Source: a virus. From it: a DNA stretch of 64,000 nucleotides. The stretch is from the IMG/VR virus record IMGVR_UViG_3300017605_000678, positions 1-64,000 of that record; one strand, given 5' to 3'. Shown here in pieces: positions 6,412 to 28,941 of this stretch (its first letter is position 1; each line of letters starts with the position of its first letter). The notes beneath the pieces are model-generated. The model saw only the letters and a list, made by a program, of their open reading frames with translations. It did not search any database and had not been told where the DNA came from. Made by a program: the position numbers and the translations under genes.

Positions 6412-7956
6412 TTAGGCCATCATGTCGATTTGAGCCTGGAACGTCGATCCGTCCGGGCCCGTTCCGCGCTTGGCTTGGTACTCGAGCGGCAGCATAACGT
6501 CCGTGTTGATCCCCTGGACGCTCGGACTACCGCTCGAAAATTGCACGCTCGGATAAAACACGTTGATGTAGCGGCCGCCCGTGTCAATCATGGTCAGCTC
6601 GACGCTCTGCGCGACGTGCTGCAGGAAGGCGTCGAGTGTGCTCTTCTCCGTGAAATAGGTCTCCATGGCGCCCGTGATCTCGGCGAGCCCGCTGCCGTGC
6701 TGGATCGTGCCCTCGCGCGCAATGGCCGGCCGCTCGCGCAGATTGTTCTTGAGCGCCATTGTCCAGCGCCGGAACAGGCTCGGAGGTTTGGCCCCATTGA
6801 TCAGCAAGTTGCCCACGTTCGCGGTCGTGTTGTAGATCGGGTTCGAACTGGGCGCATTGATGGCGTTGGCAACCGTGTCCGTGCGCGTCGGCGTGATCGC
6901 CCCGTAGGCCAGCCAACCGAATTGGATCATTGCCTTGGCGCGCGATTCAAGAGTCAAAGTCATCGTGTCAACGGCGCAGCCCAGGAGCGCGATCACGGTC
7001 GCCGCCTCCACGTCCTCCTGTTCAATGATGAACGAGGAATACGTTGCCCCCTGCCGAACGTAGTTGACCGACACAATGGCCGAGACGCCGCTTTCCGCCA
7101 CGAAGGCCGAGCCGTCGAGGTTGACCACCGTAAACGTGTTTCCACTCTGTGCGATCACGCGCTTGATCCCATTGTTGACCGCGTTTACGAATCCGGAAAC
7201 TTTGATCAGCTTGCCCCCGCTCATGCCGGCCAGGAGCCCGGTCGTTTTCGTGTAAACGCCGCCCGTGGTCACGCCCCAGGTACCGGAATCGCTCAGGGAA
7301 ACGACTGGCCCTTGCATGGCCGCGGCAATGAAAGGCTGCAGGTCGCCGTAGTGCAGCTCGTGCGTCGTGTCGCCGCTCCCGCTGATCCCGACCTTGACCA
7401 GATCCTGGACAACGCGATCGGCTCGGATCTCTTCGCTCTGAACCGTGACCTTGTTGTGGCGCAGACCGGAGGAGTTGAAGCGTAGCTCCGTAGCAGCCGT
7501 GTAAAAGCCGGCCGCGCCCCCGGTCAGGTTGCCAGTGGATCCGCTGCTCAGGCCGCTCAGCGTGACCGCCGTCGAGGCCTTGGCCAGCGGCAGCGAATTG
7601 CCGACCGTGCCATGCAGCCGCGCCGTGAGCGTCACGGCGGCGCCGTTGACCGACGCAATCACGTCCACGTTGCGGGTCGTCGCGCCAAAGAAGGCCGTGC
7701 CGAGCGTGCTCTGACTGGCGTTGATCGCGTCGGCAAAGTTTTGAGCGGTCGCAGCAGCCGTGGCGCCGATCTTCACGTCGCGAGCCGCGGCAAGTGTGTT
7801 TTGGAGCGTGTAAACGACACTGTTGACCGTGATCGTGTCGGCGGCCGTGCCCGTGCCCGTGAAAGTGGCGACGCCGGTCGCGTAGGCTCCGCCTGGGTCG
7901 AGGGAAAAGGTCGCCTCTTGAATGTATCGCAGCTTGGTCTTGTTTGCGTCGCCCAT
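6412..7956 (-). CDS. Major tail tube protein with inserted N-terminal domain
   Basis: KLRYIQEATF...ELRFNSSGL...VQSEEIRADR and EITGAMETYF signatures of siphovirus tail tube proteins. Confidence 0.85.
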   Translation of the reverse strand: MGDANKTKLRYIQEATFSLDPGGAYATGVATFTGTGTAADTITVNSVVYTLQNTLAAARDVKIGATAAATAQNFADAINASQSTLGTAFFGATTRNVDVIASVNGAAVTLTARLHGTVGNSLPLAKASTAVTLSGLSSGSTGNLTGGAAGFYTAATELRFNSSGLRHNKVTVQSEEIRADRVVQDLVKVGISGSGDTTHELHYGDLQPFIAAAMQGPVVSLSDSGTWGVTTGGVYTKTTGLLAGMSGGKLIKVSGFVNAVNNGIKRVIAQSGNTFTVVNLDGSAFVAESGVSAIVSVNYVRQGATYSSFIIEQEDVEAATVIALLGCAVDTMTLTLESRAKAMIQFGWLAYGAITPTRTDTVANAINAPSSNPIYNTTANVGNLLINGAKPPSLFRRWTMALKNNLRERPAIAREGTIQHGSGLAEITGAMETYFTEKSTLDAFLQHVAQSVELTMIDTGGRYINVFYPSVQFSSGSPSVQGINTDVMLPLEYQAKRGTGPDGSTFQAQIDMMA

Positions 7957-7996
7957 AGTGTTTTGAGAGTAAGCGCACTCGTCTGCGCGTTGTCAA

Positions 7997-8416
7997 CTAC
8001 TGCAAAGCGTCGACCTGAAACGGAACGGACACGTTCTGCATCAAGGTCGACGACGTGAGGATGGCTGGCCCGTTGGATGAACTCCGGAAAACGAAGTCCA
8101 GCCCCTCGGGGCTCCGAAACGAAACCATCCGAAAGATCGCCGCGGCAAAGTCCAAGTGCCCGGCCAGGACCGCGGTCCCGGAAGTCACCGGCACAAAGGC
8201 TTGCACGACGACCAAGCCGTCGTGCCGCTCCAGCCGGAAGCCAGGAGGCCCCAGGCCGATTTGCCCGCCAATGGAACCGGCCAGCCCCAGGCGAACCCAG
8301 GCGCCCGAAGCGGGCTGCGCAAAAGGGACATTCAGATAATCGACCGGGGTCCGGTTCGCCCAGGCGCTTTGAAAGCGGCTCTCCACTGCTTTCCTTACTG
8401 CCGAGTAAATGTCCAT
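7997..8416 (-). CDS. Tail terminator-like protein (DUF4128-like)
   Basis: VDYLNVPF...WVRL...GLVVVQAFVP..SG; position before tube. Confidence 0.75.
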   Translation of the reverse strand: MDIYSAVRKAVESRFQSAWANRTPVDYLNVPFAQPASGAWVRLGLAGSIGGQIGLGPPGFRLERHDGLVVVQAFVPVTSGTAVLAGHLDFAAAIFRMVSFRSPEGLDFVFRSSSNGPAILTSSTLMQNVSVPFQVDALQ

Positions 8417-8452
8417 TTGGTTAGTAAGGCAGCGCCCCCGCGCCCGCGGGCA

Positions 8453-8833
8453 TCACGTACGCGCCCGGCCGCGCAAAATCCAGACGTTGTCCGTTGGCTC
8501 CTGCTGGATCAGCTCCAGGTCCCAGCGCACGCCGGCGGCGTCCGTGTAGTAATCGTCTCGGCCGGGCCGCGTCGGAACGTCGGTCGTGCGCAGGATGATC
8601 TTTTTGTCCCCGGACTTCACGAGGTCGCCGCGGCCCTGCATTTCCTCTTCCGTGAACAGGCAGAAGAGCGCGGTCGCCGGCCCCGCCGTGTCCGTCGCTC
8701 CGGTCGAGCCCGTGCTGGCGTTGTAAGATCCGGCGCCGACGCGGTGATACTGGCCGGCGTCTGAGATCTGCCCGAACAGATTGTAGATCGTTCCGACGGC
8801 GTTTTTGACGATCCCTTTTAGGTCGAGTGCCAT
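8453..8833 (-). CDS. Head closure / head-tail joining protein
   Basis: AGSYNASTGS...LVKSGDKKII; synteny. Confidence 0.72.
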   Translation of the reverse strand: MALDLKGIVKNAVGTIYNLFGQISDAGQYHRVGAGSYNASTGSTGATDTAGPATALFCLFTEEEMQGRGDLVKSGDKKIILRTTDVPTRPGRDDYYTDAAGVRWDLELIQQEPTDNVWILRGRART

Positions 8834-9442
8834 TCACTTCTTTTCGGCGGCGTAGAGGCCGGTGATGAATGCGCCGATTCCCTGGGCCACAATGGCCAGG
8901 ACGGCCACGATCTCCAGGATCGGCTGCTCCGCCAAAGGCTTTGCTGCAAAGATCGCCGCGGCCAGCATGAGGCCGCCCATGAGCGACAAGGATCCCCCCA
9001 TGGTGGTCCGCCAAGCCCGTTGGCGCAGGCCGTCGGAGAAGCCGCGCCCATACGTCGCTTTGTGGGCGCGAATCATGTTGAAGACCGCGTCATTGTCTGA
9101 ACTCGTGAAAGGTTTTTCAACGAATCCATGCGCGCCGGCCGCTACTGCTTTATCGCTCATGCATTGACCTTCCCGGCCCCTGTCGGAGCCGCTAACCGCT
9201 ATGACCACCATGCCTGGGCGCCGCTCCGTCAAATAACGGATCAAGTCGAGACCGCCCATGTCGGGCAAGTCCAGGTCTATGATCGCCGCGTCGAAATTCG
9301 CCTCGCGAACGGCCTCGAGCGCTTTCTTGCCGCTCTTCCGAACATCGACGAAGCAGGCCTTGTCCTTTCCGCCGTTCGTCAATTTTCGTTCCAGCACGTA
9401 TGAGTCGTTCACGTCGCCTTCGACGACCAGGATCGAAGTCAT
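8834..9442 (-). CDS. Response-regulator receiver (REC) domain fused to C-terminal two-TM holin-like segment
   Basis: ILVVEGD, AIIDLDLPDMGGLDL, IAVSG, GFVEKPF; then WRTTMGG plus two hydrophobic helices ending GLYAAEKK. Confidence 0.85.
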   Translation of the reverse strand: MTSILVVEGDVNDSYVLERKLTNGGKDKACFVDVRKSGKKALEAVREANFDAAIIDLDLPDMGGLDLIRYLTERRPGMVVIAVSGSDRGREGQCMSDKAVAAGAHGFVEKPFTSSDNDAVFNMIRAHKATYGRGFSDGLRQRAWRTTMGGSLSLMGGLMLAAAIFAAKPLAEQPILEIVAVLAIVAQGIGAFITGLYAAEKK

Positions 9443-10012
9443 TCACGCCCTTCTGAGTTTGACGACCCCGCCCTTTGCTGAGGTCGGCTGCGAGTACTTC
9501 CACAGCGCATTCTGAACTGTGCGCGGAACCACTGGCAGCGGATCGCCCCCGCTTGCGAACTCAACCTTGACCGCCCCGGTCAACTCGACGGACTTCAGCC
9601 CGCCCTCGGCGCCGCTGGCGTCGACCGTGCGGTCCCCCTCGAGCAGGCGCATGGCCAGCTCGCACGCCGCGTCGACCACGGCCTTCGGAACCTTGTTCTC
9701 CGGCAAGTATGCTCCCTGCAGCCCGGTGCCGGCGGAGTAAATGCTCCGCTCGTCTGAATCCGGATCAGGACACTGATAGCGCGGCCACTGCAGCCCTTGG
9801 CTTTGGCTTTGCTTGTAACCGTAGAATTGAAACTCCGAATCGATCAGGCGCGACGCCTGGACGAGCGCGGCCGTCTTTTGCGTGCTGTTGGCCGCTGTCC
9901 ACTTCGTGGAATACAGATTGGCATCCGCGAAGGCGTCGCCGTCGGCCACGCTCGCGTAACTGTTCGCGTTCGGGTTGGCCGATCCGTCTTCTTTGATCAG
10001 TGTCAGCGCCAT
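9443..10012 (-). CDS. Head-tail adaptor (DnaT-like family)
   Basis: LIKEDGS..NANSYASVA, QGLQWPR, AACELA motifs. Confidence 0.85.
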   Translation of the reverse strand: MALTLIKEDGSANPNANSYASVADGDAFADANLYSTKWTAANSTQKTAALVQASRLIDSEFQFYGYKQSQSQGLQWPRYQCPDPDSDERSIYSAGTGLQGAYLPENKVPKAVVDAACELAMRLLEGDRTVDASGAEGGLKSVELTGAVKVEFASGGDPLPVVPRTVQNALWKYSQPTSAKGGVVKLRRA

Positions 10013-10015
10013 TTG

Positions 10016-10615
10016 TCAGGGCACGAAGTAAGTTATCTGTTTCGGCGTAATGCAAAAAGTCTCGCCGTAGTCGTTGACGGCCGAGATGACGACCCGGTAG
10101 TTGCCGGGCAGCACGCCGGTCAGATTCAAACCCGTCGTGAGCGTGCCGTCGAGGTCGATCGTCGGATCAAACGGATTCAGCTGGACCAGCTCCAGCGGAA
10201 CGCCGGGCGCGCTCGAGCCCGCGTAAACGTAAATGAACGTCGGCTTTTGAAACGGGTTGCCGTAGTCCTTGATCGTGTAGCCAATCGAGAGCACGCCGCC
10301 CGCAATGAACTTCGCAAACATGCCCTCGGGCGGGTGCGGCGCCAGCTTCAGGTGTTGCGGCGCCTGGGGCGGGCCCTTGCGGTGAACGTCGGCAATGACC
10401 TCCCGGATCCCCTGCTCAATCCATCCTTGCATGGCCAGAAAGATCAGTAAACAGAGCGCGAACCGGAACGGGCCCGGCGGGCGGTAGCCTTGGGGCGTTT
10501 GGTTCCCACAGTCCGGACCGATTTCTTGGTCTTCTTTTTTTTCTTGTTCATGGCGTTTTGGTTTTGTCTCCGGCCCCAGGAGCGGGATCGGCAGAATCGC
10601 GAAGGAGCGGAACAT
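10016..10615 (-). CDS. Hypothetical protein with FN3-like C-terminus (start uncertain, maybe 10432)
   Basis: YRVVISAVNDYGE resembles the FN3 terminal strand; possible TM segment. Confidence 0.5.
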   Translation of the reverse strand: MFRSFAILPIPLLGPETKPKRHEQEKKEDQEIGPDCGNQTPQGYRPPGPFRFALCLLIFLAMQGWIEQGIREVIADVHRKGPPQAPQHLKLAPHPPEGMFAKFIAGGVLSIGYTIKDYGNPFQKPTFIYVYAGSSAPGVPLELVQLNPFDPTIDLDGTLTTGLNLTGVLPGNYRVVISAVNDYGETFCITPKQITYFVP

Positions 10616-10919
10616 ACTTTTCTAGCCTCCACAAGACGGTGTTGTGAGCAGTCCAGGCGACGAAGGCAATACACAGCCCCCACATCGCGAGGATCACTTG
10701 CGGGTTGCGTTGCGTGGGATCGACCTTGCCGACGTCCCCGATCAGAAGGTTCAGTCCAGAGCCGGCGCCCAGGACGGCCAGCGGGATAAAGCGGTTTGGG
10801 AAGGCTGAGATCTTGAGCGCCCAGCCCAAGACGATCAGCACGAAAAAAAGCAGCACGGCCGATGGCCAACACTGCATTTGCTCAACGAAGGCGTGGACGA
10901 AGTCGGTGATGTCTTTCAT
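10548..10919 (-). CDS. Putative holin
   Basis: 123 aa, three hydrophobic segments, LK...PNRFIPL motif, charged C-terminus. Confidence 0.7.
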   Translation of the reverse strand: MKDITDFVHAFVEQMQCWPSAVLLFFVLIVLGWALKISAFPNRFIPLAVLGAGSGLNLLIGDVGKVDPTQRNPQVILAMWGLCIAFVAWTAHNTVLWRLEKYVPLLRDSADPAPGAGDKTKTP

Positions 10920-12970
10920 GGATGAGCAATGATCCCTTGGCTGCGCCCGCTCTTTCCGCGAAAGCGAACCTCAGCCGGCGGAGGAGGATTGGGCGGAGCG
11001 GTCACGCCGGCGGCGTCGTCTCGGCCCGGGAACGGATACGGAGGAACCGAAAGCACGCCCGGCGGGTTCACGAAATAAGTAATCCCTAGCTTTATGTAAT
11101 CCGAGTCGACCAGTCCACCCACGCCCTCGGAACCGCCGCCGGTCCCTCCGATCAGCGGGTCGATCGTGATCCCGTTGACCGTGTTTCGGAAATGATAACT
11201 GTTCGTATGGATCTCGGCTCCGCCGTTCTGGAAATACTGGCCTTCGTCCTGATTGGCGATCCGCAGCTGGGTGCTCCGCGTCGCGTCGCCCCCAATGAGT
11301 CCAGTCACCACGTTGCTATAACAGAGAGCCGTCCCGCCGCGCTGATCGAGCAGCCAGCTCCAGGAGGCCCCGGAAGAAAAGTTCCATTGATTGCTCGCCA
11401 GGATCGTCCCGATCACGCCGCGCGTTCCAGTCGTTGGCCCGTGCTCGTCGGCGATCGGTCCCACGTCCAGCCCGGAGCCAGTGAAGTCCCCGCGGCAATG
11501 GCGGATCATCCAGATTCCGCCCTGCTCTGAACTCACGATCACGGCGATTGGATTGACCGCGACGTTCGCCGAGACAATGCAGTCCTCCAACACCACGAAG
11601 TTGGTCGAACTCGACACAAAAGGGTAGTAGCTCGTGTAATGCTGGCCATCCGTTGCCGCGTCTCCCTGGGCTCGGAAAGCGTAATCCCCGTTGGCAAAAG
11701 AGGATTTATAGATCACGCCGAACGGCCCCTTGCAATAGACCATCCCGTTAATGAATTGGCAGTTGTGGATCCTGAACCAGTCGCCTCCGGGCGCCATGTT
11801 CAAGTGAACATTATGAATGCTCCCGTCCGCGTGATTGTCAGAAGTTCCAACGAAGCGCACGCCGTCGAACTCGATCGCAGGCGCGCTGATCGTGCTTTGG
11901 CTCACCACGCCGTCTCCAGTAGTCGTGATCGTCGTGAAGTTTGTCCCGCGCGGCGCCGAGATGTGAAGGAGCGACTTATTGAACGTCACCCCGCTGCTCC
12001 AGGTCGCGCTGCCGGCCGGCAGCCAGATCGTTTCTCCGCCCGCGGTCGCCGCCGTCACTGCTGCTTGCACGTCTGCGGTTGCCAGCGAGGCGGCGCGCCA
12101 GATCGAGCCAGGGAACATCGGGAAGTTTGCGCCCGTGTCGTCAATCACGACGTTGTCGATCCAGTGGAAAGAGTTTGGCGGCGCCAGCTGGTGCGCGTCA
12201 TAGCGGCCGATTGTCAGATCCGCACAAGTCACGTTCGCGATCTGGAGAGTCACGCGCGACCCAATAATGGTCCAGGTCGAGGGCTCCCAAACTTCCATAC
12301 TGGCCGTGAGCGCGGCCTTGTCCCAAAGGCAAGTTACCCAGTAAAGGTGGTCCCGAGCCAGCACTCCGACCGTTGAAGTGAGACTTGGGCCGTTGCCGCC
12401 CACTTCAAGGTTGACCTCGATTCCTCCTGAGATGTTGTAAAACTGGAAGCCGGCATACTGGCCGCCCCCGGTCACTTCCTCAGCGAACACCAGATCGTAA
12501 GACTGTCCGTCCGGGCTCCAGTTCCCGACCTTCACGTAAAAGCCCCAGCTGACCTTGGCCTTTGCTCCGCCATTGAAAGAGTATTGCATGGTCTCTTCCG
12601 TCTGCCCCGTGTTCGCGCAGCATGTAGAATCGTCCATCTTGAGCGACCGCTTTGATCCGTCGTCGAGCACGAGCGTTCCGTTGGGCAGCCGCGTGCGCCA
12701 CATCCGCGCCGCGATCGGGTTGTCTAGCGTCATGTGACCGCCGTGCGTCGCCCGCTTGAGCGTCCAGGTACCGGCCGCGCTGCTCTGGGTGAATCCGTCC
12801 CAGATCTGGGCGGCCGTCGGCGTGCCGGAAGTCGGATCGACCACGTCGCCGACGTTTCCATTTTCGAAGCGGATCACGGTCTGAATTCGCGCGCTCGAAT
12901 TAAGCGGAGCGGCCGCACGGACGGAGCCGGCGGCCAGGAGGAGAGCCAGGAGGGCAAAAAGGATCTTCAT
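10916..12970 (-). CDS. Signal-peptide protein with LamG-like and beta-helix (pectin-lyase-like) regions
   Basis: MKILFALLALLLAAGSVRA/AAP; WIDNVVI ends a ConA/LamG-like region; DVQAAVTAATAGGETIWLPAGSATW starts a beta-helix. Confidence 0.7.
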   Translation of the reverse strand: MKILFALLALLLAAGSVRAAAPLNSSARIQTVIRFENGNVGDVVDPTSGTPTAAQIWDGFTQSSAAGTWTLKRATHGGHMTLDNPIAARMWRTRLPNGTLVLDDGSKRSLKMDDSTCCANTGQTEETMQYSFNGGAKAKVSWGFYVKVGNWSPDGQSYDLVFAEEVTGGGQYAGFQFYNISGGIEVNLEVGGNGPSLTSTVGVLARDHLYWVTCLWDKAALTASMEVWEPSTWTIIGSRVTLQIANVTCADLTIGRYDAHQLAPPNSFHWIDNVVIDDTGANFPMFPGSIWRAASLATADVQAAVTAATAGGETIWLPAGSATWSSGVTFNKSLLHISAPRGTNFTTITTTGDGVVSQSTISAPAIEFDGVRFVGTSDNHADGSIHNVHLNMAPGGDWFRIHNCQFINGMVYCKGPFGVIYKSSFANGDYAFRAQGDAATDGQHYTSYYPFVSSSTNFVVLEDCIVSANVAVNPIAVIVSSEQGGIWMIRHCRGDFTGSGLDVGPIADEHGPTTGTRGVIGTILASNQWNFSSGASWSWLLDQRGGTALCYSNVVTGLIGGDATRSTQLRIANQDEGQYFQNGGAEIHTNSYHFRNTVNGITIDPLIGGTGGGSEGVGGLVDSDYIKLGITYFVNPPGVLSVPPYPFPGRDDAAGVTAPPNPPPPAEVRFRGKSGRSQGIIAHP

Positions 12971-13563
12971 TTCCGGAAAAGTAGAAAAGGCGAGAGCGGT
13001 CTTGGCTCCTGGGGCTTCATGTAGCGCATTGGCTCAACGGGGTGCGGCGCCCAGGCGAGTGTTACGGTCCCGGTCGGGCCGGCGCCCACGAGGATCAGGT
13101 CGGCCTTCGTCCAGTCCGTCACGCTGCGCGAGACGAGCGCCACGCCCGGCACTGGCACGGTGATCGCGCCCAGCTGGACGGCCCGAGGCGCCACGGGCTC
13201 GGGCGCCACTTGGAAGAGGACCCAATTGGTCAACGGCGATTCCTGGACCGCGTTCGTGCTCGTCACGGTGATCCAGTGACTCGATGCCAAGTCCCAATTG
13301 GTCAGCGTCACGCCAAGCGATTGGAAGACAAAACCGCCATTCGTGAACGTCTGGATGTTCGTCGAGGCAATGGCCCGCAGGAACACGCCCGAAACGGCGT
13401 TGCTCTCGTAAACCGTGTAGCCCGTCGGCACCATGATCCCGGGCCCGCGCGGGGGCGCGTTCCAATACAGGATCAGCTGGCCAGGGACGGGCGCGGCCGC
13501 CGTCGTGAGGAGGAGGGTTTGCGCGAGTCCAACGACGGCCACGCCGAAGAGTTTCTTGATCAT
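12967..13563 (-). CDS. Signal-peptide protein with FN3-like domain
   Basis: Start MIKKLFGVAVVGLAQTLLLTTAAA (ATGA overlap); LYWNAPP...TGYTVY...VTSTN..QES. Confidence 0.65.
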   Translation of the reverse strand: MIKKLFGVAVVGLAQTLLLTTAAAPVPGQLILYWNAPPRGPGIMVPTGYTVYESNAVSGVFLRAIASTNIQTFTNGGFVFQSLGVTLTNWDLASSHWITVTSTNAVQESPLTNWVLFQVAPEPVAPRAVQLGAITVPVPGVALVSRSVTDWTKADLILVGAGPTGTVTLAWAPHPVEPMRYMKPQEPRPLSPFLLFRK

Positions 13564-14339
13564 GATGGGTTGCTCCCGAGGTCGCCCGTGTTGCCCAGGC
13601 GGATCTTGTCGTAAACGATCTTCCCGCTGCCAGAGTTTCCGAACGCGTCGAGGATCTCGATCTTGTCGATCGTTCGCTGCCCCGTGCCCGTCGCCGCCTT
13701 GGCGTGGTTGTTCGAGCCGTCCGCCGGCTTGGTCGCGCTCGTGTTGAACCAAATCTCGGAAATGTCCTCGCCCGCATTGGCGCCTTGCTTGTAGTGGAAC
13801 CAAAGATGGTAGGTCGTGTCCGGCGAGACCGTCGCTACTGTCGAAACGAGCGGGCTCCCGCCGTCTCCGTACACGCGAAAAAGGTTCCCGTTCAGATCCA
13901 CCGTGAAAGCCGGGTTTCCGCTGGAGTCGAGCAGCTCGAGCAAGGTCGTTCCGCCGTCCGCAATGGTCACGAAGCGGATCATCATGTAACCCCAGACTTC
14001 CGGATTGTTGCCGAGGCTGCTCTTCGTGACGATCGAGTTATTCGCAGCCGGCATGCTCAAACTTTGGCTGCCAGCCAGCGGCGCCGGCGCCGCCGTGTCG
14101 TCCCAATTGGCCGCTCCGGCATCCAGCGTCCAGCCGCTGGGCGTGCCCGTGCCCTCGGCGTCCTCGCTCACGAGGTTTGCCGTCCCGTTGCCGCCGCCTC
14201 CGCCCGTGGGCGCGGCGCCTGGGCTCGGCAAGAGACGATTGATAAAGAGGCCGCCCGATCCCGCGGCAGCTCCGCGCACGCGCTGGAGAGGAACGAGCGC
14301 AAAAGCCAAGAGAAGGGCGGCGAAAAGTAGGCGATTCAT
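13560..14339 (-). CDS. Signal-peptide LamG/ConA-like protein
   Basis: MNRLLFAALLLAFALVPLQRVRG; TTYHLWFHY, IVYDKIRLG. Confidence 0.65.
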   Translation of the reverse strand: MNRLLFAALLLAFALVPLQRVRGAAAGSGGLFINRLLPSPGAAPTGGGGGNGTANLVSEDAEGTGTPSGWTLDAGAANWDDTAAPAPLAGSQSLSMPAANNSIVTKSSLGNNPEVWGYMMIRFVTIADGGTTLLELLDSSGNPAFTVDLNGNLFRVYGDGGSPLVSTVATVSPDTTYHLWFHYKQGANAGEDISEIWFNTSATKPADGSNNHAKAATGTGQRTIDKIEILDAFGNSGSGKIVYDKIRLGNTGDLGSNPS

Positions 14340-14343
14340 ACGA

Positions 14344-17300
14344 TCAGAATTTTCGGACTTCGACCTTGAAGGTTCCACTGGCCGGATTCTGTGACGCGGC
14401 CACCGGGATGAAGCGTACCCAGACAAAATCGTTGCTCGCCCAGGCCATATACGACCCAAGGATCGGCATCACGGCCACGGGCGGAACGCCGAGCACGACC
14501 GGATCCCCGGGCAGAGCGCCAGTGACGGCGATCGATAGATCGGCCACAGCTCCGGAGCTTGTGATCGGGAAGTCGAGCGCCGCGGAGGCCGTCAAGTTGG
14601 TTGTGGTCAGCAGCAGGGTTGCCGAGGCCGTCGCCGTGTTTGTCACGATCGCCAGCCCAGGATTCACTTGCAGCGCCAAGTCCGGGATCGCCTCCTCCCA
14701 GGCGTTGGTCCACGTTCCGCGCTTGACGAAATGGTAGCGGCTGACCGCGTTCGTGGGAACGAGCGCTTGCGTGAGCGGATGATTGATCCAGGAGGCCGCC
14801 GCGATCGGCTGCCAGACAACGGCGTTCTGCCCGCTGTTCGTGATTTCAAGGGTTACGTCCACGTTGGGCGAAAAGTTGGTCAGGACGATCGTCGTATTGG
14901 CCGAAATGGCGATTGAGTAAAAGTTGTTCGTGCCGTTCAGCTGAACGACGTTCGCATCGTTCTGCGGCGTGACGACCTTGTTACTGATCGCGCCGTCGGC
15001 GAAGAACCAGCCCTCGTTGAAAATGTTAGTGACCAGCGCATTGGCCTTGATGTTCGTTTGGCTGCCGCTGGCGTCGAACTGGTTCAAGTTGAACGGACCG
15101 CCGCCACCGCCGCCTCCGCCGCTGCTGGCAATTGTCGCCGTGCCCGCGGCCGTGTTAGTCGTGATCGTGATGTTCGGTCCGGCCACGAGCGCCAGACTCG
15201 GAGTCGCCTCTTCCCAGGCATTGGTCCACGTCCCACGCTTCACGAAGTGATAAAAGCTGGTCGCGTTCGTAGGAACGCTTGCCTGCGCGTTCGGATGAGT
15301 CACCCAGGAGGAGGCGCCGATCGGCTGCCACGTCACGACAAATTGCCCTGAATTTGTGATCTCCAGGTAGAGATCTACGTTTGGCGACAGATTGGTCAGG
15401 ACGATCGTCGCGTCGGCTCCCAGCACGATCCGCCAGTTCTGATTCGTCCCATTGACCTGATACACGCTCCCGTTGAGCGTCGGCAGAAAGAGAGAATTGC
15501 TCAGCGCGCCGTCGAGCGTGATGAATCCGGCATTGTGAATGTTCGTGAGCAGCGGGCCGTTGCGGATGTTGGTCAAGCTGCCGGATCCGTCGAAGACGTC
15601 GGTATTGAACGAGCCCCCGCCGCCTCCGCCTCCGCCCGTGGCCCACTTAATGCCGGCCGGTTGCGTTGAGTCCGCTTGCAACGTCGTTCCATTGGCGCCC
15701 ACGGCCACGCGGACCAAATGCGCGCCGTCATAGGCGAAGAGGTCGCCCTTGGAAAGTCCGCTGAGGGCCGCCATGTCCTGCAGGATCATCGCGTCGGCGC
15801 TCATGTTCCAACCGTAAATCGTGCCGGACAGCTGCGCGAAGCGGAACCACGTAACATAGTTAGGCGTCTGATTCGCTTGGCCAGGATCGACTTGGTTCGT
15901 TGCCGTCACCCACTTGATCCCGCTCGGCCACGTCACGCTTCGGCCGCCCGTGCCGTCCTGGACGAGGAGAACATCGATCTGCTTGCCATTGCCGGCGTTG
16001 TTGAAAGTAAAGGTCGTGTTCACCCCAAGCGTTTTCGACCGCATGCTCGAGAGCGCCCAATCGATCGCAGTGCCCGAGATCGCCGCCTCTTGCCGATTGA
16101 TCGGCCCGGAGAAAGTCTGCTCGAGCGAGAAGTTGTTTGCAGCATCCTGATAGGCCGTCGCCGCCGCCACGTTCCCGCGGGCAAGGATCCCGCTCACGGC
16201 GTTTGCGCTCGAAAGATCGATCGCGCCCCATGCCAGGGCGGAGGCCGCTCGGCGCAGCACTTGACCGTCCGCGCTCGAGGACATGTCTCCAGGCACTCCG
16301 GTCGAATTGGCCGCCCGACCGATCACGGAGAGCGCCGCGGAGTTTCGCAGCTTCGTGTCCGTCACGACGCCGGTATCAATCGTAAAGATCGTTCCGGAAC
16401 TTGAAACCGTGATGTCTGTCTTGTCGCCGTCCGTGAGCGTGCCGGCGTTCACCCAGCTCACGTCCGCCCCCGTGCCGCCAGAGCGCAGCAGTTGGCCGAG
16501 CGTGCCCGGCCCCAGGGCGGTCCAGCCGGAGGCGCCGCGGAAGAGGACCGTGCCCTGGGCGCTCCCGGCCCAGTCGAGCAGCTGCGAGAGCGTGACCTCC
16601 TCAGTCACGCCGGCGGCCGCCGTGTTGCGGCCCAAGACGCGCTGGCTAGCCGAAATGTTCTGCAGCTTGGAATAGCTCACGACGCCCGGATCGATCACCC
16701 AGGTCGCCCCGCCGCCGCTGACCGTGATGTCGGTCTTGTCGCCGTCCGTCACTCCGGCGCCCGAGGCCCAGCTCGGGTCCGCGCCGGCGCCGCCCGTGCG
16801 CAGGAAGTTTCCAGCCGTGCCCGGCGCCAATGCCACCCAGCCACCCAGGCCGCGGTAGAGCACGCTTCCGCGCACGCTGGAAAGCCATTCCAGCAGCTGG
16901 CCAGGGTTGAGCGCCTCTGGCGGCCCGCTGCCGGCCGTCTGGCGCCCGAGGAACGTCTGGTTGGCAATGTTCGCGATCTTGCCCAGGCTCACGGCGCCGG
17001 CGTCAATCGTCCACGTCGCGCCGCCTCCTGAAACCGTTATGTCGGTCTTGTCGCCGTCCGTCACGGGCGAGACGGTCAAGGGCACAATGTTTGCCGAGGC
17101 GTCGAATCCAAGCACCTTGCCGGCGGCCCATGACGTCGCCGGCCAGTTGAAGAGCGTGGTCGGCGCAATCACAAACTGCTCGAAAATCTGCGCGTTCGTG
17201 AGGTTCACCCCGTTCTTGAGCGAGATCAGGCCCATAGTCGGTCCGAATCCAAGCGGAGAATAGAATTGGTCGGAGTTCAGCATTGTCCACTGGATCCCGA

Positions 17301-17907
17301 CCTCTGTGCCCTGCAAGAACCAACCGTTGTGGTTGGCCGGCGGGTCCAGAGTCTCCCAGACGACGCCGTCGGAGAACAGGACGGAGCCCGCGGGCGCCTT
17401 GGCCCCAGTGAGCGAGTAAATCATGTTTAGGATATCGGAGGCAGCGATTGCCTCAGGGGCGCCAGTGCCGACCGAATAGCGGCCGAGGATCGTATTGCGC
17501 GCTTGGCTTTGCATTTTGGCCAGCGTCACGGCCGAGTTATTGATCGTCCAGGTCGAGCCGCCTCCGCTGACCGTGATGTCGGTCTTGTTTCCGTCCGAGA
17601 CGCCGCCGCCGGTGCCCACCCCGCCGTGCGTTTCCCATCCGGTCGTCGTGGCCGTGCCGTTTGTCTTCACGAAGAGCGTTCCAGCGCCCACGCTATTGGT
17701 CCGGATCCAGATGTCGCCAACGGAGCCGCTGATCGCGCCCTCGGGCGCCACGTTGCCGGCTTGAATCGTCCCGGGCTTGCCCAGCTTGACCGAAAGGTTG
17801 GCGTCGGAGTTTGTCGTGTTCCGGTTCTTGAGGATGGGCGGCCCGAACTGGGCCGCGGCCGGAAAGCAGATCGAAAGGAGGAGCGCGAGGCGCAAGATCG
17901 TCTTCAT
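14344..17907 (-). CDS. Large repetitive fibre/adhesin-like protein with N-terminal signal peptide (~1187 aa)
   Basis: Start MKTILRLALLLSICFPAAA/Q after a GAACGAAATAAC leader; four DG(D/N)KTDITVS repeats; QDGTGGRSVTWP fibre motif; duplicated module ending HFVKRGTWTNAWEE. Confidence 0.75.
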   Translation of the reverse strand: MKTILRLALLLSICFPAAAQFGPPILKNRNTTNSDANLSVKLGKPGTIQAGNVAPEGAISGSVGDIWIRTNSVGAGTLFVKTNGTATTTGWETHGGVGTGGGVSDGNKTDITVSGGGSTWTINNSAVTLAKMQSQARNTILGRYSVGTGAPEAIAASDILNMIYSLTGAKAPAGSVLFSDGVVWETLDPPANHNGWFLQGTEVGIQWTMLNSDQFYSPLGFGPTMGLISLKNGVNLTNAQIFEQFVIAPTTLFNWPATSWAAGKVLGFDASANIVPLTVSPVTDGDKTDITVSGGGATWTIDAGAVSLGKIANIANQTFLGRQTAGSGPPEALNPGQLLEWLSSVRGSVLYRGLGGWVALAPGTAGNFLRTGGAGADPSWASGAGVTDGDKTDITVSGGGATWVIDPGVVSYSKLQNISASQRVLGRNTAAAGVTEEVTLSQLLDWAGSAQGTVLFRGASGWTALGPGTLGQLLRSGGTGADVSWVNAGTLTDGDKTDITVSSSGTIFTIDTGVVTDTKLRNSAALSVIGRAANSTGVPGDMSSSADGQVLRRAASALAWGAIDLSSANAVSGILARGNVAAATAYQDAANNFSLEQTFSGPINRQEAAISGTAIDWALSSMRSKTLGVNTTFTFNNAGNGKQIDVLLVQDGTGGRSVTWPSGIKWVTATNQVDPGQANQTPNYVTWFRFAQLSGTIYGWNMSADAMILQDMAALSGLSKGDLFAYDGAHLVRVAVGANGTTLQADSTQPAGIKWATGGGGGGGGSFNTDVFDGSGSLTNIRNGPLLTNIHNAGFITLDGALSNSLFLPTLNGSVYQVNGTNQNWRIVLGADATIVLTNLSPNVDLYLEITNSGQFVVTWQPIGASSWVTHPNAQASVPTNATSFYHFVKRGTWTNAWEEATPSLALVAGPNITITTNTAAGTATIASSGGGGGGGGPFNLNQFDASGSQTNIKANALVTNIFNEGWFFADGAISNKVVTPQNDANVVQLNGTNNFYSIAISANTTIVLTNFSPNVDVTLEITNSGQNAVVWQPIAAASWINHPLTQALVPTNAVSRYHFVKRGTWTNAWEEAIPDLALQVNPGLAIVTNTATASATLLLTTTNLTASAALDFPITSSGAVADLSIAVTGALPGDPVVLGVPPVAVMPILGSYMAWASNDFVWVRFIPVAASQNPASGTFKVEVRKF

Positions 17908-17968
17908 GTTATTTCGTTCGGCCGGTCCAGAGCGGAGCGCGCTCCCGGCCCAGCGCGCGCAAAAAGAA

Positions 17969-18172
17969 TTAAGCCTGCAAGACGAGGTTCCACCCCGTGT
18001 TCCCGGAACCGCCCGAAAACTTGAAGTAAAGGAACCCGGTCGCCGTGTCGCCGTACCACGATCCTTGCGCAGCAGCGACCACGCCCTCGGGCGCGCCCGA
18101 GCCAGTGAGATTGCTCCCGCTGCCCGTGATCGTCGTCCCGCCGGCGCCGGTCGTGCCATGCCGGATCATCAT
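17969..18172 (-). CDS. Small protein consisting of a fibre-associated GxPEG...GW module
   Basis: GSGAPEGVVAAAQGSWYGDTATGFLYFKFSGGSGNTGW. Confidence 0.6.
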   Translation of the reverse strand: MMIRHGTTGAGGTTITGSGSNLTGSGAPEGVVAAAQGSWYGDTATGFLYFKFSGGSGNTGWNLVLQA

Positions 18173-18702: not shown

Positions 18703-19776
18703 CTAGTTGTTATGCGTGATGCCGACAAACCGGATGTTCTTGTAAACGTAAACCGGAGGCGTGGCCGCGCCGTCGTAGCCCGTCACCCAGATCGGGGTCC
18801 AACGGGCCGCCGTGGCCAGCTGCGCGTCGGTCGCGCCGCCGTCGGCAGTCGCGCCGCCCGTCGTGTCGTTCCACTGGAAGCCGCGCGGATGCTTGATCCA
18901 GCGGCGCCGATTGATAAGCACGTCGTCGTGAGCCAGCGAAACGCGGCTCAACTCGACGCCCTTCGTACCGAACCCGCCGGACAGCGGCTCATTCAAGCGC
19001 TGATTTCCGAACCCGAACACGCCCGGCCCGTAGAGGACCGAAGTGTAAACCACGCCGTCGGTCGAGCCGGCACGCGTCGGCATCTGGTCGGTGATGATCA
19101 CGCGCCGGCCCTGGAAGACCGCGATCGTCGGCTTGCCTTCAGAGTCGGGCAAGTAGTCGATCAAATCCTGCTTCTTAAGCGCCGCCTCCGTCGCCGAGTG
19201 CATGGAGATCGCCACGAGGTCGCGGTTGGCGTCGCCCAGCTTCTGGACGGCGTCCACGAAGGTCGAGCCGTTCAGCTTCGTCGCCGACGTCTGCGCGGCA
19301 ATCGATTCCGAATGAATGGCCAGCAAGTTGGGGTCGCCAGTCACGGCGTCGAGCGCGCCAATGATCCCTTTGACGGAAGCGATCACGATCGATTGGTCGA
19401 TCTCCGTCCAGTAAGTGGCGACGAAGTCGGCGATCGCCATCATCGGATCGTCGCCGGCCAGCAGCGCGGCCAGGAGGGTCACGCTCCAGGCGTTGCCGTC
19501 ATTGTGAATCCGCGCCACGTCGGTCGACGTGTTGATCGAATTCACAGAGAACGAGCCGGAGTCCGAGATCAACTGCCGGGCCGCGAGCGAGACCGTGCCC
19601 TGCTTCCACGCGGGCATTGAAACGATCTTGCCGCCGTCGGAGATGAGCGCGTCGTACTGCGGGCCGACCTCGATAATGTCGGATTGCCCGAAAGAAGTAT
19701 TGATGACCGATCGCTCGATCACGTAGTCCTCAAAAATGCTCGGGACGAGGACGTCGGAAACCAGTGTTTTCGCCAT
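18703..19776 (-). CDS. Major capsid protein
   Basis: MAKTLVSDVLVPSIFEDY, AVQKLGD, MHSAT, FQGRRVIITD, HPRG; follows scaffold. Confidence 0.92.
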   Translation of the reverse strand: MAKTLVSDVLVPSIFEDYVIERSVINTSFGQSDIIEVGPQYDALISDGGKIVSMPAWKQGTVSLAARQLISDSGSFSVNSINTSTDVARIHNDGNAWSVTLLAALLAGDDPMMAIADFVATYWTEIDQSIVIASVKGIIGALDAVTGDPNLLAIHSESIAAQTSATKLNGSTFVDAVQKLGDANRDLVAISMHSATEAALKKQDLIDYLPDSEGKPTIAVFQGRRVIITDQMPTRAGSTDGVVYTSVLYGPGVFGFGNQRLNEPLSGGFGTKGVELSRVSLAHDDVLINRRRWIKHPRGFQWNDTTGGATADGGATDAQLATAARWTPIWVTGYDGAATPPVYVYKNIRFVGITHNN

Positions 19777-20728: not shown

Positions 20729-21286
20729 TCAGTGACGTTGCCGATCGTATTTCGGGCGCAGCAGCGCCAGAACGTCGGCCCCGGGGGCAACCTCCCGAGG
20801 CAGTAAATTGTCCATGCGAGCCAGGATGGCCTCTTGGATCGCCGTGGCATGCTCGACGGGCAGGCCCATTTCGGAGGAGTCCAGCAAGCGGATCTTGCCG
20901 TGGTCGCGGCGCGCTTTCTCCTGGGCCACCATGAGGAGCGCGAACACGAGCGAGGCCGTGTCATCCCGCAGGCGCACGACCTCGGGCCGCTGCGCCAAAT
21001 AAATAACTTCCCACCACGCTCGGTACTTCGCCGCCTCGCGGCCGTTGATCTGCTTCGCTATGGCCCACCATTTCTCAGTCTGGGTCCATAAATCCCAGGT
21101 TGGGATCAAGTGGGCCACGCGAAAAGTCCGCTGATCCCGACAAATGATCGGCAGCAAATGGCTTTCGTTTCCGATGATCGTGTGCCAGTCCTGCCGGAGG
21201 CCTTTGTTGATCGCGGCCGCCGTGTGAAGGCTCGTCGAGAGATCGGAGGCGACGTTGACGCGCTTTTTCTGATAGTTCTCGCTCAT
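20729..21286 (-). CDS. Hypothetical protein
   Basis: Start MSENYQKK by ATGA overlap. Confidence 0.55.
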   Translation of the reverse strand: MSENYQKKRVNVASDLSTSLHTAAAINKGLRQDWHTIIGNESHLLPIICRDQRTFRVAHLIPTWDLWTQTEKWWAIAKQINGREAAKYRAWWEVIYLAQRPEVVRLRDDTASLVFALLMVAQEKARRDHGKIRLLDSSEMGLPVEHATAIQEAILARMDNLLPREVAPGADVLALLRPKYDRQRH

Positions 21287-21555
21287 CGCTTGCGCGCTTC
21301 GTGCTGGATCTTTTCGGCCTCTTTGTTCAAAGCGACCATGCTCTCGTGCTCGGCGCCCAGGCAACTGGTGCAGACGCGAACCCCGGGCTGGCCGGGCCGG
21401 CCGTGCACGATGTGGCCCTCGAACTCGCTCCGGGATTTCTTGCAGCGCGGGCAAATGAACTGGTCCTTGCCGACTGCGCGCATGATCGAGACGACGACCG
21501 CCACCATGCCGGCCAGGAGCGCCCCCAGGATCACGAGTGAAACCTTCAGCGTCAT
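21283..21555 (-). CDS. Membrane-anchored Zn-finger protein
   Basis: N-terminal TM, CPRC...CTSC. Confidence 0.55.
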   Translation of the reverse strand: MTLKVSLVILGALLAGMVAVVVSIMRAVGKDQFICPRCKKSRSEFEGHIVHGRPGQPGVRVCTSCLGAEHESMVALNKEAEKIQHEARKR

Positions 21556-28525: not shown

Positions 28526-28705
28526 TCACCGTTTCGGGCTCAACTTGTCCAGCCCCATGCCGGCGCCCTCGATCTTGTCGGCGCTCGATTCAATGGTCCG
28601 GACCGTGCCGTCCGTGCTCGTGATCGTTTCTTTGACATAGGGGCGCTCGATCCGCGCGACGCAACCGGCCAGGAGGAGGAACGGGAGAAGCAAAAAGATT
28701 CGCAT
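28526..28705 (-). CDS. Small lipoprotein
   Basis: MRIFLLLPFLLLAG/C lipobox. Confidence 0.65.
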   Translation of the reverse strand: MRIFLLLPFLLLAGCVARIERPYVKETITSTDGTVRTIESSADKIEGAGMGLDKLSPKR

Positions 28706-28737
28706 GGGGCAAGTTGTGACCACGGGCGCGCTGTCGG

Positions 28738-28941
28738 TCAATGATGGAAAAAGCCGTACAGCGTAAACGTGAGAAAGATCCAGAGGCCGAGCCAGAAGAG
28801 CCCCCAGCTGATTTGCTCGCCCGCATGCGCGATCGCGTCCTCCAGCGTGCGCGGCGCACGGCCGGACCGCCGGCTGCGCCGCTCCTCCTCCGCCTGCGCC
28901 TCGATCCTCTTTCGGAACTCGCTCTTGTCGTCGTCGCTCAT
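28738..28941 (-). CDS. Small membrane protein
   Basis: MSDDDKSEF... with C-terminal TM helix. Confidence 0.5.
   Translation of the reverse strand: MSDDDKSEFRKRIEAQAEEERRSRRSGRAPRTLEDAIAHAGEQISWGLFWLGLWIFLTFTLYGFFHH

Follow-up and report, generated by a model that had tools for sequence, protein, structure and literature searches.

Why would a phage with no histidine kinase of its own carry a two-component receiver domain, fused to a membrane hairpin, among its head-tail joining genes? The question is raised by a gene at positions 8834-9442, on the minus strand, of the first 64,000 nucleotides (64 kb; hereafter the window) of virus record IMGVR_UViG_3300017605_000678. The record is complete (75,536 bp, with direct terminal repeats) and represents an uncultured soil phage of ~75 kb, with a GC content of 63% and nearly all of its genes on the minus strand. 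The open reading frame (ORF) begins with ATG and encodes 202 amino acids. As set out below, we favour, at a probability of roughly 35%, the reading that its product regulates a late membrane event, most plausibly the timing of lysis, and that it does so by contact with other proteins and not by phospho-switching. The protein belongs to a known kind, the pseudo-receivers or single-domain response regulators; what is new is that it is phage-encoded and fused to a conserved hairpin of two transmembrane helices.

The preliminary description of this stretch had read the ORF as a CheY-like REC domain followed by two hydrophobic helices, and further analysis bore out both parts. The model PF00072 (response regulator receiver) matched residues 11-115 with an E-value of 1e-15 (58.3 bits against a cut-off of 30.2), and when the same hidden Markov model (HMM) was run on a six-frame translation of the whole genome, it returned this domain (2.5e-17, 59.2 bits) as the sole REC. 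The AlphaFold2 model showed the canonical (beta-alpha)5 order, with strands at residues 2-7, 30-35, 52-56, 79-84 and 106-109 alternating with helices at 11-23, 38-47, 64-74, 95-101 and from 114 onwards; its mean predicted local distance difference test score (pLDDT) was 85.6, and that of the receiver ~90. The nearest solved fold in Foldseek was the receiver of Aquifex NtrC1 (1zy2; 7e-10, template modelling score 0.81 on the target), which was also the best phmmer match (2.6e-09), and NCBIfam yielded generic REC matches only, far under the equivalog cut-offs. The receiver domain is genuine, and the REC call is far beyond chance. NtrC1 (1zy2, 1ny5) resembles the phage protein further in that its helix alpha5 extends into a long linker helix, but its active site is intact and its linker leads to an AAA+ ATPase and not to the membrane. 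The parts of the phage protein are listed here from the N-terminus, with conservation taken from an alignment of 10 family sequences.

9104-9442, minus strand: REC core, residues 1-113 (Pfam, NtrC1 alignment, AlphaFold2, Foldseek)
9014-9103, minus strand: helix alpha5 and linker, residues 114-143 (alignment, AlphaFold2); G138 is invariant in the family
9002-9013, minus strand: juxtamembrane W144-R-T-T147, with the W in 9 of 10 sequences and T146 in 10 of 10
8945-9001, minus strand: predicted first transmembrane helix (TM1), residues 148-166, Gly/Ala-rich (hydropathy, alignment, AlphaFold2); G150 and G156 are invariant
8924-8944, minus strand: short loop, residues 167-173 (KPLAEQP), probably periplasmic; 13% pairwise identity
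8849-8923, minus strand: predicted second transmembrane helix (TM2), residues 174-198 (hydropathy, AlphaFold2, alignment); G190 is found in 9 of 10 sequences
8834-8848, minus strand: predicted cytoplasmic C-terminus A-E-K-K and stop; the family consensus is D-K-K

The active site was read from alignments to NtrC1 and to the protein's own family. The first acidic position (DD1) is E8, aligned with the E of NtrC1 'IEDD', the second (DD2) is G9, the acceptor is D56, the Thr/Ser position is S84 and the conserved Lys is K110. All the motifs quoted in the preliminary description are present: VEGD is E8-G9-D10, AIIDLDLPD spans residues 53-61 with D56 four residues before P60, VSG holds S84 and EKPF holds K110, and in the tail WRTTMGG is residues 144-150 and GLYAAEKK is residues 195-202. 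An acidic DD1, the acceptor Asp, the Thr/Ser and the Lys are all in place, and DD2 is Gly9 where 8 of the 9 family sequences covering the position have Asp. The slight alteration of the acidic pocket noted in the preliminary description can thus be stated more precisely: what is lost is DD2, a direct metal ligand. A 2025 review terms any receiver without one of five catalytic residues a pseudo-receiver, and reports an acidic DD2, the residue that binds the metal directly, in every true receiver and a non-acidic one in ~80% of pseudo-receivers (PMC12632262). With Gly9 at DD2, the protein, as far as its sequence tells, therefore counts as a pseudo-receiver under that definition. Like the pseudo-receivers and aspartate-less receivers of the literature (PMC12632262; PMC4395418), it has a REC fold from which one of the five residues is missing, its own loss being the commonest one, and regulation is presumably independent of phosphorylation in both. 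The examples discussed in these papers are cellular response regulators, whereas this protein is encoded by a phage, within an operon of virion genes, and has a hairpin of two transmembrane helices as its sole output. The neighbouring D10 might partly compensate for the lost DD2.

Relatives were sought exhaustively with HMMER among 1.84 billion representatives, of which about nine clusters matched over the full length including the tail. All the full-length relatives listed are from public sequencing runs as assembled in Logan, where their contigs measure 1-27 kb; P0153, for example, lies on a 27-kb contig (27,255 bp) and P0084 on one of 21.5 kb (21,513 bp). In the family layout the receiver is followed by Gly138, which is invariant, and by the motif W-[RK]-T-[TS]-x-x-G; then come a Gly/Ala-rich TM1 in which G150 and G156 are invariant, a variable loop, a TM2 with G190 and a D-K-K end. 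Of the 10 aligned sequences, 6 carry Asn as the acceptor, with the DD, T and K kept, and all five catalytic residues occur together in only three (P0151, P0003 and P0068). The Asn acceptors argue that gating by phosphorylation is not the common mechanism of the family, whose function would not generally need aspartyl phosphorylation.

These residues bear directly on two proposals of the preliminary description, namely that the protein is a holin or antiholin gated by host kinases or acetyl-phosphate through phosphorylation of D56, or else a membrane-tethered phosphate sink. A phospho-gated protein could draw on D56, S84 and K110, perhaps with D10 partly replacing DD2, and P0151, P0003 and P0068 have complete active sites; the continuous helix from alpha5 into TM1 described below would also offer a plausible transmission path. 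However, true receivers are all acidic where this protein has Gly9 (PMC12632262), and a conserved function cannot need phosphorylation when more than half of the aligned sequences carry an Asn acceptor. We consider these proposals quite unlikely. The sink in particular needs rapid phosphotransfer, and it was rejected in view of the lost DD2 and the Asn acceptors of the relatives.

The preliminary description had suggested a search of phage databases for homologues that combine REC with two transmembrane helices, and had held that its reading would fail if the homologues turned out to be ordinary chromosomal regulators. No family member was found among GenBank phages, nor in IMG/VR by relative searches with alignments and single proteins or by a motif scan, and IMG/VR relative searches using the neighbouring head-tail adaptor (Ad1) and the tube protein of the phage found none. 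Scans of JGI metagenomes and GTDB genomes gave REC-only matches; a tail HMM run on 113 loci, 112 of them from these scans, matched only the window gene. A word-index profile search recovered three members only. The family thus appears to be rare and has been seen only in metagenome assemblies, and, as far as the data go, its members are not ordinary chromosomal regulators. A separate observation concerns the phage collection itself, in which many of the records that match receiver domains look like bacterial contigs and not like phage genomes. Listeria phage LM 4-11-1, Staphylococcus phage SA 1306 Kay and Acinetobacter phage MD-2021a are examples. Among these records are whole-genome-shotgun entries that bear the names of bacterial strains and others annotated with OmpR, PhoB, NtrC or CheA, and many have no annotation at all; a count of phage receivers based on this collection would be inflated.

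Hydropathy and the AlphaFold2 model both place transmembrane helices at about 148-166 and 174-197, with a loop of seven residues between them; in the model, alpha5 continues into TM1 without interruption, as a single helix over residues 114-166 (pLDDT 72-87 there). Arg140, Arg142 and Arg145 lie ahead of TM1, two Lys residues stand at the C-terminus and the loop is neutral; by the positive-inside rule both termini would therefore be cytoplasmic (N-in/C-in), with the receiver in the cytoplasm. Mean pairwise identity in the family is 36% across the WRTT motif and TM1 and likewise 36% in the REC core, against 13% in the loop. Since the hairpin is as conserved as the receiver core, it appears to be under sequence-specific constraint and to be more than a passive anchor. 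A separate product of the hairpin was also considered: M148 could begin a 55-residue peptide acting as a holin or antiholin from an internal start, an idea that was rejected because position 148 is not conserved.

The conservation of the hairpin also has to be set against the possibility that the protein is a membrane-tethered decoy, whose REC would bind the DHp domain of membrane histidine kinases or some other host protein that recognises REC domains. A host two-component pathway, such as one for envelope stress, pili or flagella, would thereby be blocked or diverted, and infection exclusion is one possible outcome. REC domains naturally partner histidine kinases, of which the phage has none: the absence of a kinase noted for the window extends to the complete 75,536-bp genome, in which neither HATPase_c nor a second receiver was found. 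The tether would place the REC beside membrane kinases, and kinase binding is still possible for a receiver that cannot be phosphorylated. The model for such a decoy is PIT4 of phage LSL4, a phage protein acting on host two-component systems, which binds several host histidine-kinase domains and is proposed to act in infection exclusion; it differs in being the product of an early gene and in not being described as a REC domain (PMC10714779). However, a mere tether would not need the conserved WRTT, G150, G156, G190 and DKK, and the family-specific conservation lies in this tail and not in helix alpha1, which sets kinase specificity. Proteins of host takeover are usually early, as PIT4 itself is, whereas the present gene would be expressed late and has no promoter of its own. 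We therefore regard the decoy as possible but doubtful.

The position of the gene, which the preliminary description had correctly placed against head-tail joining genes, gives an indication of when the protein is made. The late gene string runs on the minus strand as follows.

18703-19776, minus strand: major head protein, first in the late gene string
10916-18159, minus strand: four proteins with hydrophobic, signal-peptide-like N-termini, after the major head protein
10548-10919, minus strand: holin-like protein of 123 amino acids (phrog_1129 5.4e-4 and PF16079 0.007, both under the family cut-offs)
between the holin-like gene and Ad1, minus strand: protein of ~100 amino acids
9443-10012, minus strand: head-tail adaptor Ad1 (phrog_477 4.6e-39, PF20557 4.9e-31), the upstream neighbour
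8834-9442, minus strand: the receiver-hairpin gene, between Ad1 and the head closure gene
8453-8833, minus strand: head closure protein Hc1 (phrog_161 3.3e-07), the downstream neighbour

The tail terminator, tube, chaperones and tape measure follow Hc1, and the distal tail genes run on across the record ends. The receiver-hairpin gene is joined to Ad1 and to Hc1 by TGAATG on both sides, with zero intergenic bases, and a Shine-Dalgarno sequence (AGAAGG) lies upstream of its start codon. A consensus scan, covering sigma-70 type sites only, found no promoter- or terminator-like site at either junction, and the single promoter-like match of the scanned region falls inside the gene and is not above chance expectation. 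Given these junctions, the gene should be made late, together with the connector proteins.

Comparison with phage Halfdan, the one annotated relative compared, suggests how the gene came to lie there. The Halfdan module consists of Ad1, Hc1, terminator, tube and chaperone, with Ad1 and Hc1 directly adjacent, and phage RcXuper is similar, with an unannotated 127-residue gene directly after the adaptor; by this comparison the receiver-hairpin gene appears as a seamless insertion between Ad1 and Hc1. A 6.5-kb contig from a different soil study spans positions 7610-11054 at ~94% identity and has the gene without an indel, which argues that the arrangement is stable in the lineage. The GC content at third codon positions (GC3) is 0.75 in the gene, slightly under that of the core structural genes (0.76-0.86); the accessory genes of 8834-12970, which are the receiver-hairpin gene, the holin-like gene and that of a 684-residue exported protein, range from 0.72 to 0.75. 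Small shares of the sequence were detected in six soil metagenomes, with no RNA run among those listed.

An accessory insertion into a structural operon is also what many exclusion morons are, and the protein might have another membrane function, such as superinfection exclusion by blocking DNA entry at the inner membrane, for which the degenerate REC would serve as a scaffold. The predicted inner-membrane location and the loss of catalytic residues in a pseudo-receiver would suit such a role. Of the two marks of a moron, however, we found the insertion relative to syntenic relatives and not a promoter and terminator of the gene's own; prophage expression is not indicated either, since the ORFs scanned include no integrase or repressor, and PHROGs revealed no similarity to known exclusion proteins. 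A function of this sort seems unlikely to us.

Several other genes of the region drew attention in their own right. The four consecutive genes at 10916-18159 (minus strand) with signal-peptide-like starts have almost no family matches, apart from a weak match to DUF5907 repeats in one protein of 1271 residues, and exported proteins inside a head-gene cluster were unexpected. Within the gene of the 684-residue exported protein, 624 bp (11054-11679) are replaced by 606 unrelated bases in ~94%-identical soil-metagenome contigs from two runs, which looks like a swapped cassette within an otherwise conserved region. Further upstream, a 90-residue ORF at 21283-21555 (minus strand) has a strong N-terminal transmembrane helix, then two CxxC pairs that resemble a zinc ribbon, then a charged helix; it is located between the genes for head morphogenesis and scaffold, next to one for a putative outer-membrane barrel. 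A 71-residue ORF at 28526-28741 (minus strand), in an island between the terminase and portal genes, has a lipoprotein-type signal with the lipobox LLLAGC.

What late membrane event could a protein of this design serve? Our reading is that it would be an inner-membrane-anchored pseudo-receiver, made together with the head-tail joining proteins and kept in the membrane by its N-in/C-in hairpin. The run of alpha5 into TM1 as one rigid helix would hold the REC directly beneath the membrane, so that the hairpin would be linked mechanically to any change at the alpha4-beta5-alpha5 face of the domain. The degenerate phospho-site of this protein and the Asn acceptor in most of its relatives make action by protein-protein contact, and not as a phospho-switch, most likely. 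On this basis we infer an antiholin-like or holin-modulating regulator, which would work through the conserved hairpin, the cytoplasmic face of the REC, or both. Late co-expression, the conserved and rigidly coupled hairpin, a nearby gene that is the only holin-like one found, and the occurrence of receivers in the lysis cassettes of other phages all fit this reading, although the evidence for the link to lysis is circumstantial.

That receivers do occur beside lysis genes was seen in two cultured phages. In the Alteromonas myovirus V22 (MN877442, 24959-26577), a 149-residue receiver (ORF30) lies between two genes for proteins with a transmembrane segment and a coiled coil (ORF29 and ORF31), in a group that directly follows a papain-like amidase (ORF28). 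In the Alteromonas siphovirus R9Y2 (OM732336, 5827-7147), overlapping genes encode a transmembrane/coiled-coil protein (gp13), a receiver (gp12) and a lysozyme (gp11). The association of receivers with lysis genes in at least two cultured phages is thus real. As in the window, each has a late, single phage REC together with a membrane element, and no phage kinase is annotated in the stretches read; in both, the REC is co-translated with a small membrane-anchored helical protein beside the endolysin. They differ in that the REC and the membrane element are encoded apart, the latter in a protein with one N-terminal transmembrane helix and a coiled coil, and in that both active sites are intact. 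In GenBank the Alteromonas receivers are labelled 'hybrid sensor histidine kinase - response regulator' or 'hypothetical protein'. The architecture and role that we propose are those of N4 gp62, a lysis regulator with two transmembrane helices and both termini in the cytoplasm that tunes holin-dependent lysis (PMC12642591). The likeness is one of architecture and proposed role; gp62 has no REC and is paired with the pinholin gp63 inside a lysis cassette; the 'receiver domain' of that paper is not a two-component REC (PMC12642591). In our literature search, neither the fusion of a receiver to a membrane hairpin nor the presence of receivers in phage lysis cassettes was the subject of any paper found.

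The holin candidate reported at ~1.1 kb was found where it had been described: the ORF at 10548-10919 ends 1106 bp upstream of the receiver-hairpin gene, in the same gene string, and no other holin candidate was found in the genome. Its product has about three hydrophobic helices by eye, two of them above the hydropathy threshold, and a charged C-terminus. Prediction of a complex between its product and the receiver-hairpin protein returned a score of 0.00, which counts neither way. No membrane gene follows the last tail gene; the end of the tail module, at 63.3-63.8 kb, holds small soluble ORFs only.

The case for a lysis regulator has to be weighed against several results that point away from it. 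The preliminary description had taken small proteins with two transmembrane helices starting W(K/R)TT..G as holin-like and had named a tail unlike any such family as grounds for giving up its reading, and our searches bear on exactly this point. At E<=10, no holin model in Pfam matched the tail, whether it was searched alone or within seven full-length relatives, PHROGs gave no match of any kind, and tblastn found none in 50,697 phage records; judged by these searches, the tail resembles no known holin or antiholin family. The candidate holin is itself weak, its matches lying below the family cut-offs, and the receiver-hairpin gene is separated from it by a small ORF and Ad1 and lies inside the connector module, flanked by Ad1 and Hc1 and not by an endolysin in a lysis cassette. 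Moreover, no endolysin is recognisable genome-wide, so that the lysis system is undefined and arguments from gene position are limited: PF00959, PF01464, PF01510 and PF00182 were absent from the six-frame whole genome, and none appeared among ~70 ORFs scanned against PHROGs or Pfam. The Alteromonas receivers, finally, adjoin an endolysin as the window gene does not, and with ~24% identity between V22 ORF30 and the window REC over the receiver they are best taken as an analogy and not as homologues.

Other searches with the tail were equally sparing. A word-index search, of low sensitivity, found no short stand-alone relatives. An IMG/VR scan with the motif G..[KR]...WRT[TS]..G[SAG]....G returned 25 loci, and all six weak tail-HMM matches were non-coding frames of GC-rich DNA. 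Matches of the tail to DUF3040, DUF3784 and DUF2613 were set aside as generic similarity between proteins with two transmembrane helices, since they fell under the cut-offs and differed from one member to another. A protein atlas gave no usable feature match, and by structure the tail is closest to helical hairpins of a generic sort, found at the N-termini of membrane GGDEF proteins and kinases.

The same results also weigh on the idea that the protein is itself a hole-forming holin or pinholin, whose hairpin oligomerises into lesions while the REC remains a bulky cytoplasmic appendage. An N-in/C-in hairpin with a Gly/Ala-rich TM1 and a short charged C-terminus, here ending in EKK, would be as in class II holins, and the genome offers no other strong holin. 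Yet the protein is 202 residues long with a folded cytoplasmic domain of 145 residues at its N-terminus, and we know of no holin with such a domain; nor is there similarity to any holin family, or an endolysin gene alongside, and a separate holin-like gene with about three helices is present at 10548-10919. We hold this to be highly improbable. The broader suggestion of the preliminary description, a holin or antiholin that ties lysis to host signalling, survives in part: the fusion of REC and hairpin, the setting among late genes, the nearby holin-like gene and the lack of a kinase all stand, whereas similarity to holins, gating by phosphorylation and a place in a lysis cassette are not supported.

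A more specific form of the lysis-regulator reading, which we think rather unlikely, is a one-piece, signal-controlled lysis timer, in which the state of the REC would reach, through the alpha5-TM1 helix, a hairpin that restrains the phage holin or sets it free. That state could be residual phosphorylation, the binding of a metal or metabolite in the largely conserved pocket, or the binding of a partner. If this is right, the protein would be the fused counterpart of the pairs of REC and membrane protein in the lysis cassettes of unrelated phages, and would point to a widespread, undescribed class of receiver-based lysis regulators.

Lysis timing sets the fitness of a phage, and its inputs are known for few model phages. 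If the lysis-regulator reading is true, this timing would have an input of a new kind in a receiver-type domain that is linked to the membrane and encoded in a late operon, and the fused form makes a compact object for testing it, with one gene, a clear predicted topology and obvious point mutants. Should the decoy reading hold instead, bacterial histidine kinases would have a natural inhibitor in this protein. This phage lineage appears to keep the receiver fold while the phosphorylation chemistry decays, which bears on how pseudo-receivers are regulated.

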